DNA of 10,027 bases, from the UHGV virus genome UHGV-0373029; one strand, given 5' to 3'. The DNA comes from a virus. A program made the position numbers and the translations under genes. Shown here one piece after another: positions 202-10,027 of this stretch (the first letter of the stretch is position 1; every line of letters starts with the position of its first letter). The notes under the pieces were generated by a model. The model had not been told where the DNA came from, ran no database searches, and saw nothing but the letters and a program-made list of their open reading frames with translations.

Positions 202-666
202 ATGCAAGTTTCGGAAGGTAAACAAGAAGTGTCTATCACAACAAAATTACAGCAGTTAGATAATTATTCCAAAAGTAATTATTCAGCTATTCGTGATTTA
301 CAGTCTGATATGAGGCTGCTTCAGCTAGGGATGGAGAACCAGAAAGTCCAGTTAGAGAATGTTAAGGGTGAGAACGCAAAACTTACTAAGACTCTTGATA
401 AATTCTCTGATAGTGTGAACAATCTGGCTCAATCAGTATCAGCCCTCCAAGCTATTACTGAAAAGAACACAAAGAATACTGAAAAAGCTTTTTCTAAGTT
501 ATCTACGAACTCATCATCAATAGGTGTATCTGTCTTACTTGCGAGATATCTTGCAAGCCTAAAGAACACTTTCTCAATCATGTATTCACTTAGAAGGGAT
601 AAAATGAGTTTCCAGAAGAAGCTACCTAGATTTTTTAGAAGAATTGCTAGGATTGTAGGCATTTAA
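202..666 (+). CDS. Hypothetical protein: N-terminal coiled-coil-like region, C-terminal hydrophobic segment and basic tail
   Basis: 154-codon ORF, very unlikely by chance in AT-rich DNA. Residues 1-100 are Q/L/K/E/N-rich with heptad-like spacing, then a hydrophobic stretch IGVSVLLARYLASL and a basic tail RRDKMSFQKKLPRFFRRIARIVGI. Weak point: no Shine-Dalgarno at useful spacing before ATG 202 (AAGGAG lies 18 nt upstream, inside the hairpin). A 77-aa antisense ORF overlaps it. Confidence 0.5.
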   Translation: MQVSEGKQEVSITTKLQQLDNYSKSNYSAIRDLQSDMRLLQLGMENQKVQLENVKGENAKLTKTLDKFSDSVNNLAQSVSALQAITEKNTKNTEKAFSKLSTNSSSIGVSVLLARYLASLKNTFSIMYSLRRDKMSFQKKLPRFFRRIARIVGI

Positions 667-741: not shown

Positions 742-3111
742 TTAAGCAGTCCTTACCCAAGCCATTAACTTGTAGAACTGGTTAGTGACGCTAAATGCTG
801 AACCAGAACCAGTACCACCTGTGTTACCGCTAACTGTGTGGCTGTGAGCACCAATACCAACAGTGTGCGAGTGGTTGCCAGTTGTGTTGGTTACACCTGT
901 CCAAGTTCTTGACGCGTGGAAATCAGCAGCAGCACCGTAAGTGAAGTTAGAGCCTGTGAAGCCATGTGAAGCCTGAGAACTACCCATCTGAAACGCACCG
1001 CTCGCAGTGTAGAATGCACTGTTATCACTTCTGAACCAACCAACCACACCAGAAATTTCCATGTTACCTCTATTGTGAGCATGGTTGCCAGTCGTATTTG
1101 TCGTCTTAGTACCATAATCAAATGATGAAGTGGTAGCAGAGAAACTATGCGTGTGTGAAGGTAAGTTACCAACAGATAACGTTACAGAATCTGAACCACC
1201 AGTTGTAGCAACATCTGAACCGTTTGCTGCTGCAATTCTAATAGTTCTGCCAACACCATTATTCAGGTACGTCCAAGTTAGACCAGGAAGTGCTGTATTA
1301 GGGTTAACATTACTGTTAAACCACGTTACAATACCTACTGGATAGATTTTATTCAGGTCTGTAGAGTCACTAATTGCTTCTGCAATCTTCTGGTCAGTCT
1401 CTGCTTTAGTGTATGCACCAATTTCTGAAGGGGTTGGTTTATCTTGGTCTGTATAGATTTTAGCCCAAGCATTCTCAAAACCATACTTATCTCGTGCTGT
1501 CCTGTAAAAAATACCACCATTCTTGTAGATAAACTTAAACTGTGCAGTTGGTGTTGAGCCACCACCGATAAACATCTGATAAACTAGTTGTGATGCACCC
1601 CCAGTTTTCATTGTAACATTATACAGACCAGTTCTAGCATTCCAAGCAATACCATCCTCATCACCAACCTCTGTACCACCGCCAGAAGAGACAGCAAGCA
1701 TGTACCTAGAGTTTGCGACAGATTGCGTATAATATCTGGCATCTAAGTTAGAGAAATCAGAAGGTTGAATCTGTCCAGCTAGAGTTAGTGTTTTGTTGAT
1801 ACTTGCAGATGAGTTACCTAAAACTAACTGAGTTCCAGAAAAACTGTTATTTAGGGTTACATCATTAGTATCTGCCCCACCAACACCCACCCACCATCTT
1901 GATACATTAGCAGTGTCCATACCACGGATATACAATGGTCTGTTCTGAGTAGAGTTTTTCACAATTAGAGTTTCATCATCTGCAACAATTTTCTGTACAC
2001 CATTAAAAGTGTTTTGTGCATTAGTTCTTGCAATCGTACTTAATGTTGCTGCCGGAATATATCTAGAGTCAATGTTAGCCCAATCTGAAGGTTGAACTTG
2101 ACCACCAATTTGAACTGTTTTACTCATAGTAATGGTGTTACCTAGTGAGATTTGTGTTTTTGCTAGATAGTTATAGATGTTTACAATGTTTTCATCACCA
2201 TCGTTACCAATGTACCACTTATTAGCCCCATCTGATTTTCTTGCTTGGATATACAAAGCCGCAGTTGTGTCTACATTTTGCAGAGTGATGGCATTAGCAT
2301 TCTTCTTAATAACAAAATTAGTGAAGGTATTAGAGCCACTAAAAGTGTTATTACCAGTTAACTGTGCAAATCTCTGATTAGCAACTGTCTGAGTAAAGTA
2401 TCTAGCATCTAAGTTAGAGAAATCTGAAGGTTGGACTTGACCAGTGATTCTAAGTGACTTATTAAATGCTGCTGTTGCATCAAGGGTTAACATTGCACCA
2501 GTAGCATGATTGTACAAATATACATTAGTACTGTTTGCATTTCCCTGTCCAACATACCAAGTTTGCTGGTTATTAGAATCTCTGCCTTGAATATATGAAG
2601 CACCTGCATTGGTTGCCTTCTTAAGAGTTAACTGCTCACCATCAGTTACAATTGCTTGCCTAATGCTGAAGTTATTTGTGACAGCAAGCCTTGCATATCT
2701 TGCATCATTCTCTTCATTAGTTCTCATACCAAGTTCATTAGGGCTTGGTTTATTCAAAGTATGATAAACAGTTGCCGACCTTGTGGCATCTGCAATAGTG
2801 AGTTTAAGACCATTTGAGTTAATTTTAAAAGTCTTTAAAACATCCCCAATAGTAATCTCAGAAGAATCTGTAGGGTCAAAGATGGCCTTACCACCGTAAA
2901 GTAACTTGACAATACCTAAATCCCCAACCATAGTACTACCAGCAATCTGAACAAACCTTTCTAGTTTGAAGGAAGCTAAGAAGTCTTGATACGTCATTCT
3001 ACGGTCTTCATCACCCAGCATTTCAGGTCTTTTCTTAACTCTGATGTGTAATAGGTCTTCTGAACGAATTGTGTCGATTGAGTTTAATTGACTCAATTTG
3101 TAATCTGCCAT
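742..3111 (-). CDS. Long tail fibre protein (P2 gpH-like shaft with three ~110-aa repeats; collar-like C-terminal tip with HxH motifs)
   Basis: 789-aa ORF. Three internal repeats carry GQ(V/I)QPSD(F/W)(S/A)N(L/I)D(A/S)RY at residues 224-238, 337-351 and 447-461. C-terminal ~200 aa has a collar-like motif (YPVGIVTWFNSN...SVTLSVGNLPSHTHS), then a Gly/Ser/Thr-rich region with HTH, HAH, HSH, HSH and a ...AWVRTA end shared with the 391-aa fibre. SD-like AAGAGGA precedes the ATG. Confidence 0.9.
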   Translation of the reverse strand: MADYKLSQLNSIDTIRSEDLLHIRVKKRPEMLGDEDRRMTYQDFLASFKLERFVQIAGSTMVGDLGIVKLLYGGKAIFDPTDSSEITIGDVLKTFKINSNGLKLTIADATRSATVYHTLNKPSPNELGMRTNEENDARYARLAVTNNFSIRQAIVTDGEQLTLKKATNAGASYIQGRDSNNQQTWYVGQGNANSTNVYLYNHATGAMLTLDATAAFNKSLRITGQVQPSDFSNLDARYFTQTVANQRFAQLTGNNTFSGSNTFTNFVIKKNANAITLQNVDTTAALYIQARKSDGANKWYIGNDGDENIVNIYNYLAKTQISLGNTITMSKTVQIGGQVQPSDWANIDSRYIPAATLSTIARTNAQNTFNGVQKIVADDETLIVKNSTQNRPLYIRGMDTANVSRWWVGVGGADTNDVTLNNSFSGTQLVLGNSSASINKTLTLAGQIQPSDFSNLDARYYTQSVANSRYMLAVSSGGGTEVGDEDGIAWNARTGLYNVTMKTGGASQLVYQMFIGGGSTPTAQFKFIYKNGGIFYRTARDKYGFENAWAKIYTDQDKPTPSEIGAYTKAETDQKIAEAISDSTDLNKIYPVGIVTWFNSNVNPNTALPGLTWTYLNNGVGRTIRIAAANGSDVATTGGSDSVTLSVGNLPSHTHSFSATTSSFDYGTKTTNTTGNHAHNRGNMEISGVVGWFRSDNSAFYTASGAFQMGSSQASHGFTGSNFTYGAAADFHASRTWTGVTNTTGNHSHTVGIGAHSHTVSGNTGGTGSGSAFSVTNQFYKLMAWVRTA
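1702..2598 (-). repeat. Three in-frame tandem repeat units (~330 bp each) inside the long tail-fibre gene
   Basis: Protein repeats at residues ~172-470. At DNA level, 1733-1790 and 2399-2456 share near-identical stretches (e.g. ATCTAAGTTAGAGAAATC then GAAGGTTG); the middle copy around 2071-2115 is more diverged (CAATCTGAAGGTTGAACTTGACCACC). Confidence 0.8.
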
Positions 3112-3130
3112 TATAAATTTTCCTCTTAAA

Positions 3131-3148
3131 AGGGGCTACAAAGCCCCT
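3131..3148 (-). promoter_or_regulatory. Intergenic stem-loop between the two tail-fibre genes (possible attenuator or mRNA processing/stability element)
   Basis: In the only sizeable intergenic gap of the operon (3112-3157): 7-bp GC-rich stem AGGGGCT (3131-3137) / AGCCCCT (3142-3148), 4-nt loop. On the minus strand it is followed by TTT and then the SD AAGAGGA of the 789-aa gene. The U-tract is short, so not a confident full terminator. Confidence 0.3.
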
Positions 3149-3157
3149 GTAAAGAAA

Positions 3158-4333
3158 TTAAGCTGTTCTCTGCCATACATATACGACAAAAGATGGCTGC
3201 TCAACACTGAAAGCTTGACCACCACCAACAGAACCAGATGTTCCTGAGTGTGTATGTTCAGAGCTAGAGACAGTAACAGCACCCGTATGACTGTGTGAAC
3301 CAATATTAACAGTGTGGCTATGAGCACCAATTGCAACAGTATGGTTATGAGCACCAGATGATGCAGTTGTGCCTGAGAAGCTATGGGTGTGAGCACCTGC
3401 TAAATCAGTATACGTATTATTATTAACCCCAGCATAAGCAGATGCAGTAATAGCATCCCCCCCACTTCTATCATTACCTCTCAGTGGTACTCTATGGTTA
3501 TGGTTACCATCATTACTTGTCGTGCCGCTAAACGTGTGAGTGTGAGCACCAGCACTATTAGTCGTTTTTGTACCGTAATCAAAAGTTGATGTACTTTTTG
3601 AACCATAATCAAAACTAGAGATAGATACGCTTGCAGAGTGTGTGTGACCACCACCTGTTAAATAGATAGAGTGGGTGTGTGCTGGTAAATTATTATTTGT
3701 TAATGCTACAGTCTGAGAACCGAACGTTGAACCAACAGGTCTAGCTTCTGTATCATAACCAACAAGCGCCCTACCTTTAGAAACCAACTCCCAAGTACCT
3801 CCACAAAGCAAGTAAGTGGATGGGTTAGCAGAGTTAACAGACAGATGAATAGTCCCCACTGGATATGATGCTTGGATAGCTTTGTATAGATTATTCACTG
3901 CTCTCGCGGTAGCATATTTATCAGCATCTTCATTGTATAAGTTGGATGTTGTCCAGTTCTGAACATTACTTAACCCTACCTGTGCTTTCGTTGTATTGTG
4001 TGGGTTACTTTTGTCGTCGATATGTCTCTGAATTAAACTGTTCACTTCATCTGACGACATAATCTGTAGATTTGCTCTTGCCTCAGCAACATCTACAATG
4101 TCTGACAAGTTATTAGCTGCGACCAATTGGAGTGAGTTAATAACATTATCAAGACCAACTTGCGATTTAGTTACACCATGAGGGTTATTCCTCAAAGATG
4201 TGTGAGGTGCTAACAACTGTTCAAGCGTACATCTTTTATCCTCAACACCTTGCTTAAGATGGAAGATATCACTCAAATCAATTGGTAAGGCCGCTTGTGG
4301 CAAGGCACTAATTTGAATTTCACCTACTGCCAT
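3158..4333 (-). CDS. Tail fibre / receptor-binding protein (two phage fibre repeats, collar-like domain, His-x-His-rich tip)
   Basis: 391-aa ORF with SD AGGAG 8 nt before the ATG. Two copies of NPH(G/N)(V/T)TK(S/A)QVGL(D/S)NV (residues ~50-64 and ~110-124). Collar-like motif YPVGTIHLSVNS...LLCGGTWELV...SQTVALTNNNLPAHTHS. C-terminal 180 aa is Gly/Ser/Thr-rich with nine HxH motifs and the SFDYG(S/T)K(S/T)T motif twice, ending ...VWQRTA. Confidence 0.9.
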   Translation of the reverse strand: MAVGEIQISALPQAALPIDLSDIFHLKQGVEDKRCTLEQLLAPHTSLRNNPHGVTKSQVGLDNVINSLQLVAANNLSDIVDVAEARANLQIMSSDEVNSLIQRHIDDKSNPHNTTKAQVGLSNVQNWTTSNLYNEDADKYATARAVNNLYKAIQASYPVGTIHLSVNSANPSTYLLCGGTWELVSKGRALVGYDTEARPVGSTFGSQTVALTNNNLPAHTHSIYLTGGGHTHSASVSISSFDYGSKSTSTFDYGTKTTNSAGAHTHTFSGTTSNDGNHNHRVPLRGNDRSGGDAITASAYAGVNNNTYTDLAGAHTHSFSGTTASSGAHNHTVAIGAHSHTVNIGSHSHTGAVTVSSSEHTHSGTSGSVGGGQAFSVEQPSFVVYVWQRTA

Positions 4334-4335
4334 TA

Positions 4336-4638
4336 TTAAGCTCCTACATATTCATATGTGTAAAGGTTTCTTGTGCTTGTTGATGCAGTCCCTGTCTCAG
4401 ACTTAATTAGATTCCAGCCATTAGCCACTAAATCTGGTTGCTCAGTTGCATATGAGCGAACTTCACCAACAGTGCCGTTTACTTTATTCAGCAGGTAGTT
4501 GATAATATAGTTGAACCACTGTCTACCCATAGGCTCACCCTTTAAAAGACCTGTCTCTTGAATTTCCGGTGGTGGTAAAACTTTTAACTGATTACCATCA
4601 GTATCAACTTCATTTGTAGACCAATTTAAAACTGCCAT
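4336..4638 (-). CDS. Small tail-fibre-associated protein (resembles a fibre N-terminal attachment region; possibly a fissioned fibre N-terminus)
   Basis: 100-aa ORF; its start overlaps the stop of the upstream gene (TAATG at 4636-4640) and its stop lies 2 nt before the 391-aa fibre ATG. Sequence [27 protein letters not shown] resembles, from memory, the LPxP...TGL region at the N-terminus of P2 gpH-type fibres. Function is inferred. Confidence 0.7.
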
Positions 4639-5492
4639 TAAGAATTTCCTTCTTGTTGTGATTTATCTTTTCTGCCTTTGACAATTTGTGCAACCTCAGC
4701 CATGATTCCGTATGCACCACCTGCAACAGCTTCTTTACCAACGATGAAATATCCACTATTATTAGACCTATCTACAGTCATGTAATCATCACTCTGTGAG
4801 TTTGCTGTTCTGTCAACCTTAAAGTAACCATCAATAACACCAGCATCTGCAAGACTCCCTACTAGGTTGGACTCCAGAGAGCCACCAGTGTTATTTGTAA
4901 CAAGACCCCTGTTAGCATCAGTTACGAACCAGTTCTCTTTATCATCAACAATAGCAAGTGCTGAATCAGCAACCTCTACAGGTGTCCAAGCAGTCCCCTT
5001 TAAAGTAACATCTCTTAAGATAACAGCAGAACCAGTTGTTGTTGCAGAAATCTTTGATAGCGTGTATGCAGCATCAAGAACGTTTTTTCTGGTGTTAATA
5101 CGGATAACGATACCACCAGTCTTAGGAGTAATATGCTCAAAAATCTGAGAGAAAGTTGCACCATATAGTGTCATAATTGCTTTTTGCAAGAATGTTGGAG
5201 TAGTGTCAGAGCGTCTTAGGAAGATTTGGATATAAAGCATAGCTCTATATGTTTCATCATCAGCACCTAGAGGTCTAGGAACTTTAATCAGTGAGCCAAT
5301 ATTATCAAGTTGTTGGCCTACTGACGTCCTAATATTTCTCTCTGTGTGCATCTGCCAGCAAACATCCTCTAATGTTTGTAACTCATCAGTGATTGCTTTC
5401 AAGATACTTGTGTAGATAAACTTATCTTTAAACTGTGTTACAGTTCGTTCATCAAGTGTTTTGTAATAAACACTATCAATCTTTTCAAACAT
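4638..5492 (-). CDS. Baseplate wedge protein, gpI / Mu gp48-like (putative)
   Basis: 284-aa ORF directly after the J-like gene and before the fibre genes, which is the conserved gpI/gp48 slot. Two-nt gap from the upstream stop. Functional call is by synteny; coding status is solid. Confidence 0.8.
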
Positions 5493-5494
5493 TA

Positions 5495-6963
5495 TTACTC
5501 CTTAGTGATGGTATACTGGCTACTTTCCCAAACAGTATATTGGTCACCGTCAACAGTAATTCTTCCTGTAGTATATTGTCCGTCACTAGGTGGAACTGAT
5601 TGACTGTTTGATAATGCTACTTTGACTTCATTAATCTCAATACCTTTAATTACGTCATAGATATGTCCATAGATTCTGTTAGGGATAACATCATTACCAA
5701 CCTTAAGAGTTCTTCCGTAGGCATTAATACCTTGTACAATACTGTCTCTGATATCCTCTTCAGGGATTGTCAAGCTTTCTTCATCATATAGTGAGTAAGA
5801 CACCTTAACAAATGCGTATTTTGGTGTTGGTCTGCTGAAATAAATATTATGTGCCAAACCACCTAAATCGTGGGCTGTACCAAAAATTGAGCCATAAGCC
5901 CTAATACCAGCAGGCTTTGTATCCCAGATTGCCTGAGCTACATTATCATTTTGACCACCAACTACAACAATCTTAAAAGATTTTGGTGGAAGACCTTCTG
6001 AGTTTGTCTCTTCAGTATCATTTTCAACACCTGAAGCATCTGAGACACCTTGAACTCTTTTAACAGCAGCTACAATTGCATCCAAAGTTCCTACACCAGT
6101 AACTGCTAAGGACTCTAAATATCTCTGTCTAAGTTCTGTGTCAGTTTCTTCATTTCTACCAGTTGTTAAGTCATACCTGTTATAAATACTGTCAAGACCA
6201 TCAACAGTTGTCTCAATCTCAATAAGTGTACCAGCCAAAGCAGGGGTAGCACCCACCTCTTCAGCTACTACATCTGAAATAGTTGTAATTTTTGTAAAGG
6301 TCAGAAATGTTGTCGCAGTGACAACCATAGGGTTTGTTCTGGCAATGATATCACCCTCATCTTTATAGACTCTCAATGATGCTCCATCATTAATGACTTC
6401 TGCCTTTGCTACAATACCACCATTAATAGCTTCTGCTAATTTTGTTAGAAGTGTGGTGATTGTGTCTGATGAGGTTGGTTTATATGAGAAAATGACGTTA
6501 TCAATAATAATAACATAATCTGCATCAGTTCGTAAAGAGTTAACTTCAAGGACAGCTTCAACACAATATGATGGGGTTAGGGTAATGTTGTTAACTGGAT
6601 AAAAGATATTTCCGGCAGTACTTCTTAATCTTGTTGTTGAAGGAATGGTAGCACCAGTCGTTCCAGTAAACTCTACCTGACCTCTTGTTGCCTGAGCAAC
6701 ATATCTATATACAGCATTTAAAGCTGTAATATCATCAAGGTTAAAGCCTTCGGCCTTGTCAATTGTTCCACCGTCATAGACTTCTGATAGAATCTCATGG
6801 GTATCTGCTAAAGACCTTGCAATTGAAGCTAGGAAGAGTCCTAATTGACTATCTTCAGAAACGTCAAGGTTTGGTGAAATATCTCTAAGAAGTCTTGATT
6901 TGATATTATCAAAAATCTCCTGATATCTTAGAGTTTGTAATCCTGTTGTAGTTAGTCCTGCCA

Positions 6964-6964
<1 letters not shown>
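5495..6964 (-). CDS. Baseplate J-like protein (gpJ / Mu gp47 / T4 gp6 family, putative)
   Basis: 489-aa ORF whose start overlaps the stop of the gp25-like gene (TAATG). Size and position between the gp25-like and gpI-like genes fit the conserved W-J-I order. Not confirmed by search. Confidence 0.85.

Positions 6965-10027
<3,063 letters not shown>

Follow-up and report, generated by a model that had tools for sequence, protein, structure and literature searches.

The baseplate of Escherichia phage JohannRWettstein (Bas63; structure 9NDY) has been described in PMC12609058, where the wedge parts comprise wedge 1 (gp24), wedge 2 (gp23), a spacer (gp19) and a long tail fibre (LTF) platform protein (gp25). 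This platform is a trimer bound to domain 2 of wedge 1 and is the attachment point for the LTF gp27, a fibre of 630 Å, and the short tail fibre (STF) gp26, of 430 Å, binds domain 2 of wedge 2A, with both fibres containing structurally conserved baseplate-binding domains (PMC12609058). In phage phiTE, the N-terminal region of an STF itself binds wedge 1 (structure 9CUY). We analysed a 10,027-nucleotide stretch of viral DNA, UHGV virus genome UHGV-0373029 (the window), which is a Felixounavirus tail module with all its genes on the minus strand, forming a myophage baseplate-fibre module, and which contains a gene encoding a 100-amino acid (aa) protein between the wedge 1 gene and two tail fibre genes. 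We consider this protein, with a probability of roughly 0.8, to be a virion structural protein, i.e., a wedge-1-anchored trimer that docks the 789-aa long fibre and not the 391-aa short fibre. The features under study, with their coordinates in the window, are as follows.

5495-6964, minus strand: wedge 2 protein, 489 aa (Pfam Baseplate_J, expect value (E) = 8.2e-16)
4638-5492, minus strand: wedge 1 protein, 284 aa, the "gpI-like" gene of the original prediction (PDB 9ndy_J, E = 1.6e-158)
4336-4638, minus strand: platform gene, 100 aa, Bas63 gp25 orthologue (full-length matches to 9ndy_S and phrog_4141)
4474-4638, minus strand: platform N-module, residues 1-55, homologous to fibre N-termini; putative wedge-1 joint
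4339-4473, minus strand: platform C-module, residues 56-100; candidate needle-less, collar-like fibre socket
4341-4344, minus strand: GGAG ribosome-binding site of the 391-aa fibre gene, read from the sequence, within the last platform codons
3158-4333, minus strand: short tail fibre, 391 aa, Bas63 gp26 orthologue (73% identity to bas63_0026; Gp10_C tip at residues 154-390)
3128-3148, minus strand: terminator-like hairpin, AGGGGCT-TTGT-AGCCCCT plus TTT, between the short-fibre stop and the long-fibre ATG
742-3111, minus strand: long tail fibre, 789 aa, Bas63 gp27 orthologue (62% identity to bas63_0027; three gp37_trimer domains and gp37_C)

Orthology with the Bas63 platform and the fibre it would carry

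The 100-aa open reading frame (ORF) lies on the minus strand as the original prediction described it, starting with an ATG at 4638-4636 and ending with a TAA at 4338-4336. It is coupled to the upstream 284-aa gene, the TAA of which (4640-4638) shares one base with the platform ATG (TAATG, 4640-4636), and its own downstream junction reads GGAGCT TAA TA ATG, with the platform TAA followed by two nucleotides (TA) and then the ATG of the 391-aa fibre gene at 4333-4331. Direct reading of the sequence places the GGAG (4344-4341) that serves as ribosome-binding site of this fibre gene in the final codons of the platform gene. A PHROG search matched phrog_4141, for which the PHROG function is "unknown", over residues 1-100 of 100 (E = 7.8e-61), and the single solved structure matched was PDB 9NDY chain S, "LTF platform protein (gp025)", at 88% identity over the same full length (E = 7e-59), the twelve substitutions between the two proteins being conservative for the most part. 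A Pfam search of the 100-aa protein gave no domain match. The full-length phrog_4141 match, the occurrence of the gene in 302 phage records (see below) and the solved homologue argue that this is a real gene and no chance ORF, and the protein is, by its sequence, the orthologue of Bas63 gp25, the LTF platform protein of Felix O1-like (Ounavirinae) phages. The platform function is thus already in the literature, through the Bas63 structure, and its assignment here is of low novelty. In almost all related genome records the gene is labelled "hypothetical protein", a label that the assignment corrects in nearly all of the approximately 300 records.

The Bas63 locus, which we fetched for comparison, has the same gene order as the window, i.e., wedge 2, wedge 1, platform, short fibre and long fibre (489, 285, 100, 382 and 784 aa, respectively), and also has the 2-nt spacer after the platform gene. 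Together with the shared 100-aa length and the full-length identity, this leaves no difference of substance between the two platforms, and it is the downstream fibres that diverge, in their receptor-binding tips. The identity of the 391-aa fibre to gp26 rises to about 95% across the first 150 aa, and the N-terminal 150 aa of the 789-aa fibre are almost identical to those of gp27. The 284-aa protein matched "Wedge protein 1 (gp024)" (9ndy_J), showed a weak match to DUF2612 and belongs to phrog_4017, baseplate protein; by analogy with Bas63, it is the binding partner of the platform. The short fibre of Bas63 attaches to gp23, the 489-residue wedge 2 (PMC12609058), and six platform chains are present in the 9NDY asymmetric unit. 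By the Bas63 structure, the platform would carry the 789-aa long fibre and the adjacent 391-aa short fibre would bind wedge 2 directly, with some residual doubt over which fibre occupies the platform because the Bas63 platform-LTF interface is at low resolution. The proposal that the 100-aa protein is an independent adaptor docking a fibre on the wedge therefore stands as to the adaptor role, which is that of the gp25 trimer on domain 2 of wedge 1, and does not stand as to the fibre served, which would be the 789-aa fibre and not its 391-aa neighbour. For re-targeting of Felix O1-type phages, this would mean that a separate 100-aa adaptor holds the long fibre and that the short fibre plugs straight into wedge 2.

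The two fibres are themselves related at the ends that would be inserted into the baseplate. The 789-aa fibre had been thought to have an N-terminus unrelated to that of the 391-aa fibre, but the N-terminal profiles of both fibre types align (hhalign 95%, E = 3.7e-8) and share the motif ...D-x-[LF]-[LH]-[ILV]-K ... [ED]-D-x-[RK]-x-T; BLASTP between the N-termini of the two window fibres (about 50 codons each) gave no match. The homology of these domains therefore points to one type of plug and two sockets, i.e., domain 2 of wedge 2, which would take the short fibre, and the platform, which would take the long one. We propose that translation of the platform would take place within the baseplate operon and be coupled to that of wedge 1, and that each of the six wedges would have, at its periphery, a small trimer of this protein. 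We infer from sequence the partner that each half of the platform contacts: the N-module (residues 1-55) would be an intertwined joint of the kind found in phiTE, rV5 and phi92 fibres, anchoring the trimer to domain 2 of wedge 1, and the C-module (residues 56-100) would be a small beta domain of the gp10/gp11/gp12/gp37 collar type, lacking the needle, and would offer the surface for the N-terminal domain of the 789-aa fibre. The 391-aa short fibre would bypass the platform by binding wedge 2.

Our survey of relatives demonstrated that the platform gene is a conserved, stand-alone gene and that it is syntenic, in the order wedge 2, wedge 1, ~100-aa protein and fibres. Using tblastn, we identified the platform protein in 302 phage records, 301 of them at a coverage of at least 80%, with identities down to 45-50% and a range that takes in Felixounavirus, Mooglevirus, Suspvirus, Kolesnikvirus (Erwinia) and phages of Pectobacterium, Yersinia and Hafnia. 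For example, Erwinia phage phiEa21-4, Yersinia phage P778 and Pectobacterium phage Wc4-1 each contain a separate gene for a protein of 109-117 aa, located after wedge 1 and before the first fibre (spacers of 3, 3 and 11 nt, respectively), and in wV8 and PHB11 the gene is likewise a separate ORF between wedge 1 and the two fibre genes. All 33 close homologues in a collection of 5.8 billion proteins are 99-115 aa long, and in three distant metagenomic contigs proteins of ~490, ~290 and ~107 aa are encoded in this order ahead of the fibres. Among the relatives examined none had a platform fused to a fibre. These findings bear on the idea that the ORF is an N-terminal piece cut off from the 391-aa fibre by recent fission, a nonsense mutation or a sequencing error at 4336-4338, an idea suggested by the tight TAA TA ATG spacing and by the fact that the 391-aa protein matches the fibre family phrog_2097 only from profile position 205 on. 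With the 2-nt spacer, however, the platform and fibre ORFs are in different frames, and removal of the stop would leave them unfused; the split arrangement extends across the phage records to the distant metagenomic relatives; a complete N-terminal domain belongs to the 391-aa fibre itself and is conserved between genera, as far as those distant contigs; the platform does not match phrog_2097 even at E ≤ 10; and in Bas63 a separate 100-residue chain has been seen in a virion. The stand-alone conservation and the difference in frame therefore exclude both a nonsense split and a recent fission, and we give the idea of a detached fibre end a negligible probability.

Fibre-type and probable collar-type modules of the platform

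The N-module is the best-conserved part of the platform family and has the signature W6..D12..K19..PP..E25. A profile search of the PDB matched it to the phiTE "Short tail fiber" (9CUY chain c, 9cuy_c; residues 2-69, E = 0.0066), and comparison of the platform N-module with the N-termini of phiTE/rV5/phi92-type fibres using hhalign gave 97.8% (E = 6.6e-13), or 96.7% (E = 3.6e-10) with the close Ounavirinae-type alignment alone. In the opposite direction, tblastn with residues 1-69 of the phiTE STF identified tail-fibre N-termini in 434 phage records, including rV5, phi92 gp147, GAP31 and phages of Vibrio, Aeromonas and Proteus, and at the weak end of these matches it returned the platform gene of Erwinia Kolesnikvirus (E = 6e-4 to 2e-3), i.e., a reciprocal match. 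Examination of the position of these fibre genes in phi92, phiTE, rV5 and Aeromonas, Vibrio and Proteus phages showed that, in 7 of 7 phages checked, the fibre gene is located directly after a wedge 1 gene of ~210 aa with DUF2612, which itself follows a wedge 2 gene of ~495 aa. Residues 1-55 of the platform are, by these profile comparisons, clearly homologous to the wedge-1-binding N-terminus of phiTE/rV5/phi92-type fibres, and the homology together with the shared position after wedge 1 therefore suggests that they are the wedge-1 attachment domain of this fibre family.

The platform and these fibres are alike in this N-terminal domain, in gene position after a DUF2612-type wedge 1 and in having wedge 1 as partner in the virion. 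They differ in what follows: in the phiTE STF (9CUY chain c), rV5 and phi92 gp147-type proteins the domain heads a real fibre of 234-554 aa, with coiled coil, Collar and immunoglobulin (Ig) domains (in phiTE the layout is N-module, coiled coil and Pfam Collar domain), and a fibre assembly gene comes next, whereas in the platform only 45 residues follow, and it would carry another fibre rather than bind a receptor. With neither a shaft nor a part for receptor binding, the platform does not qualify as a fibre, and it shares with fibres the attachment domain alone. Thus the prediction that a separate gene encodes an N-terminal attachment domain of fibre type was right in kind, and the gpH family that it named was the wrong one. 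The likeness of the LPPP...ETGL region to P2 gpH, LPVPDAGQTGLI, amounts to 6 identical residues of 12 (BLASTP E = 0.10, hhalign 0.2%); this look-alike is all that the platform has in common with the N-terminal domain of P2 gpH (DUF3751) and is not significant, and Pfam gave no DUF3751 match on the platform at E ≤ 1.

Forms in which one module is joined to other domains were few and surfaced only in an exhaustive search. A word-indexed search with the N-module profile returned only proteins of ~100 aa, and the fused forms appeared when 1.84 billion representatives were searched exhaustively by profile, which gave 28 relatives, most of 80-165 aa and a few longer. In one of these, the 231-aa metagenomic protein P0058, the N-terminal ~60 residues are the N-module (hhalign 97.4%), and after them comes an entire collar-needle tip of Gp10_C type (Pfam E = 2.7e-19). 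The C-module, in turn, closes P0051, a fibre-like protein of 683 aa, at about 55% identity, a behaviour that marks it as a mobile domain. The two platform halves are thus also found apart, the C-module in P0051 and the N-module in the mini-fibre P0058. P0051 is encoded at 3338-5389 of contig L018, with the C-module as its last 50 residues, and this contig has an SU10-type adaptor (podophage-like); P0058 is encoded at 159-854 of contig L019, where the next gene encodes a protein with a baseplate-binding fibre-type N-terminus. A further match of the exhaustive search, P0061 (794 aa, with a repeated KNWFNYE motif), was treated as chance.

The C-module has the sequence pattern VGEVRSY..QPDLV..GW.LI...LYTYEYVGA in the window protein and is variable over the wider family, which keeps [PT]-[VI]-G-x-[VI] ... 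P ... G-(T)-W ... Y-E-[RK]-T-A. This pattern recalls the tip collar of gp10/gp12/gp37 type, and both window fibres have similar ends (...VWQRTA and ...WVRTA). The T4 gp10 C-terminal domain, gp11, gp12 and gp37 collar (Gp10_C, PF21939; Collar, PF07484) have in common with the C-module the ordered pattern P-[VI]-G-x-[VI] ... P ... G-[ST]-W ... Y-x-[RK]-T-A. Against uncut proteins, the C-module gave weak matches to the 391-aa fibre at residues 154-185, at the start of Pfam Gp10_C (E = 0.009), to T4 gp10 (E = 0.003) and to the T4 gp11 C-terminus, GTWNLLG...FYHFERTA (E = 0.024). Against seven hand-cut collars from which the needle had been excised, hhalign aligned the whole module over 45 columns (89.8%, E = 1.8e-6, score 29.1), compared with a mean score of 8.0 ± 1.7 and a maximum of 14.5 in 200 column shuffles; reversed sequences gave no signal in this comparison, and the uncut collar "head" segment alone gave E = 6.7e-5. 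Unlike the gp10/gp12/gp37 collars, the C-module has no needle or head insertion, is below Pfam thresholds and gives a significant match with needle-excised constructs only. The window platform protein had no match to Pfam Gp10_C or Collar at the curated threshold, and among 30 members of the platform family one matches Gp10_C (E = 0.036) and one Collar (E = 0.16). We also compared the C-module with wedge 2, the other socket for the same type of fibre N-terminus, and found no resemblance. The needle-excised comparison, made with hand-cut constructs, makes it likely that the C-module is a needle-less collar domain of the gp10/gp37 type. T4 gp10 and gp11 hold another fibre, gp12, by modules of this kind, which is the same logic as that of a fibre socket.

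The modest new point of this analysis is thus that the platform combines the wedge-1 joint of a fibre with what is probably a needle-less collar. An adaptor made of the wedge-binding head of a fibre and a needle-less collar would illustrate simply how a baseplate can acquire an additional fibre, and it suggests the ~55 residues to keep when engineering the wedge-1 port. None of these findings overturns current understanding.

Alternative explanations of the platform and its ancestry

Several points weigh against our account. In Bas63 the platform, which had the worst local resolution, was built as a C-alpha trace, and its interface with the LTF "cannot be interpreted" (PMC12609058), so the choice of fibre rests on low-resolution density. 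The paper on the related phage Sf14 labels the syntenic gp51 "Homolog of T4 gp11?", and mass spectrometry of the virion did not detect it; we take gp51 to be the platform orthologue from synteny and from the Mooglevirus tblastn matches. The collar likeness of the C-module depends on constructs cut by hand, and it is weak where the proteins compared are left uncut: with a hidden Markov model (HMM) of the module, the top matches in several uncut fibres lie at the start of the collar, with poor scores. AlphaFold2 monomer models from two runs with different alignments are of low confidence (predicted local distance difference test, pLDDT, 65 and 68), as would be expected of an intertwined trimer, and Foldseek searches with these low-confidence models against the PDB (twice) and BFVD retrieved Bas63 and close relatives only. 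One rival reading makes the protein an adaptor for the adjacent 391-aa fibre, docking that fibre on wedge 1. The two genes are neighbours separated by 2 nt, their translation would be tightly coupled, and the ribosome-binding site of the fibre is inside the platform gene; the terminator-like hairpin sets this pair apart from the 789-aa gene; the platform-fibre interface is the poorly resolved one; and the N-terminal binding domains are homologous in both fibres, so that the socket could conceivably accept either. The types of fibre N-terminus that co-occur with the platform were uninformative on the docking fibre, since both types accompany it in every genus examined. In Bas63, however, the STF N-terminus is on domain 2 of wedge 2A, in density adequate for backbone assessment, the LTF binding domain is placed on the platform and the variable LTF occupancy concerns the platform site, and we regard docking of the 391-aa fibre as quite unlikely. 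We consider it very improbable that the protein acts in fibre assembly without being structural, as a factor or chaperone absent from the finished virion. A small protein encoded next to fibre genes might be one, and gp51 is missing from the Sf14 particle, but a negative result by mass spectrometry is weak evidence where 100 aa yield few tryptic peptides; fibre chaperones such as P2 gpG and the "tail fiber assembly protein" of phiTE and phi92 are encoded downstream of their fibre and not upstream; the N-module has a structural fibre domain as its homologue; and the Bas63 orthologue was modelled in the baseplate map itself.

The ancestry of the platform is a separate matter. T4 gp9 works like the platform, being a trimer at the wedge periphery and the attachment site of the long fibre, and the Bas63 authors regard the platform as homologous to gp9, with "topological similarity ... 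on a smaller scale" (PMC12609058). This would make it a miniaturised true homologue of gp9 and no reduced fibre, which we consider unlikely: gp9 has 288 aa in three domains compared with 100 aa, hhalign of the platform family profile with T4 gp9 gave a probability of 0.2%, with no sequence relationship detectable, the Foldseek searches with the low-confidence models did not retrieve gp9, and both halves have better-supported relatives in the fibre N-termini and the collar module. We therefore treat T4 gp9 as a functional analogue, and an origin from a fibre stub as the better-supported ancestry. Under the latter, an ancestral short fibre bound to wedge 1, as in phiTE, rV5 and phi92, would have lost its shaft and needle, retained just the N-terminal joint and a collar without needle, and been reused as the socket for a second fibre, with P0058 as an intermediate form; as a joint claim this is tentative, and we give it slightly less than an even chance. 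If it is true, several myophage subfamilies would share the wedge-1 site as a conserved "fibre port" open to exchange, and domains of the collar type would serve generally to join one fibre to another, as where T4 gp10 and gp11 hold gp12.

Intergenic hairpin, neighbouring genes and left end of the window

The hairpin at 3128-3148 is GC-rich (AGGGGCT TTGT AGCCCCT, then TTT) and falls in the gap from the short-fibre stop (3158) to the long-fibre ATG (3111). A consensus terminator scan missed it because the T-run is short, and the equivalent site in wV8 is annotated as a rho-independent terminator. With such a terminator, the platform and short-fibre genes would share their transcription with the baseplate genes, the long fibre would be transcribed only by read-through or from a start of its own, and the hairpin might relate to the sub-stoichiometric occupancy of the long fibre in Bas63. 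Pfam analysis of the 789-aa fibre encoded beyond it identified gp37_trimer three times and gp37_C. The Bas63 record names the short-fibre gene, bas63_0026, "long tail fiber protein", contradicting the structural paper. In the Kolesnikvirus phiEa21-4 (record L001), gp70 (502 aa; 6498-8006) and gp71 (244 aa; 8016-8750) both begin with the long-fibre-type N-terminal domain and are followed by a large tail-spike-like gp72, with one platform gene only, and gp70 and gp71 may alternate on the platform or branch from it.

Over positions 3000-5600, the window shares 99.8% identity with Escherichia phage PHB11 and 94-98% with wV8-type Felixounavirus genomes. Upstream of wedge 2, the module continues as follows.

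6964-7383, minus strand: wedge subunit, 139 aa
7383-8006, minus strand: spike gene
8006-8983, minus strand: hub gene
8983-9324, minus strand: Pam3 gp18-like plug gene, the most upstream of the module listed

At the left end of the window, a segment of ~288 bp (198-485; junctions close to 197/198 and 485/486) is inverted when compared with PHB11, wV8 and each of the 289 related phage records identified, and over positions 100-760 none of the 289 is collinear with the window. No long inverted repeats flank this segment, and the inversion may be a genuine rearrangement, an assembly artefact or an edited sequence. At the right junction, about 94 nt of PHB11 (590-683 of record L023) are missing. 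A conserved 123-aa gene downstream of the fibres (phrog_4038) has lost its first ~28 codons, and its remainder is located on the plus strand within a chimeric 154-aa ORF (202-666, plus strand). The 65-aa gene labelled "holin" in relatives has a different C-terminus and is now a 77-aa ORF (429-662, minus strand).

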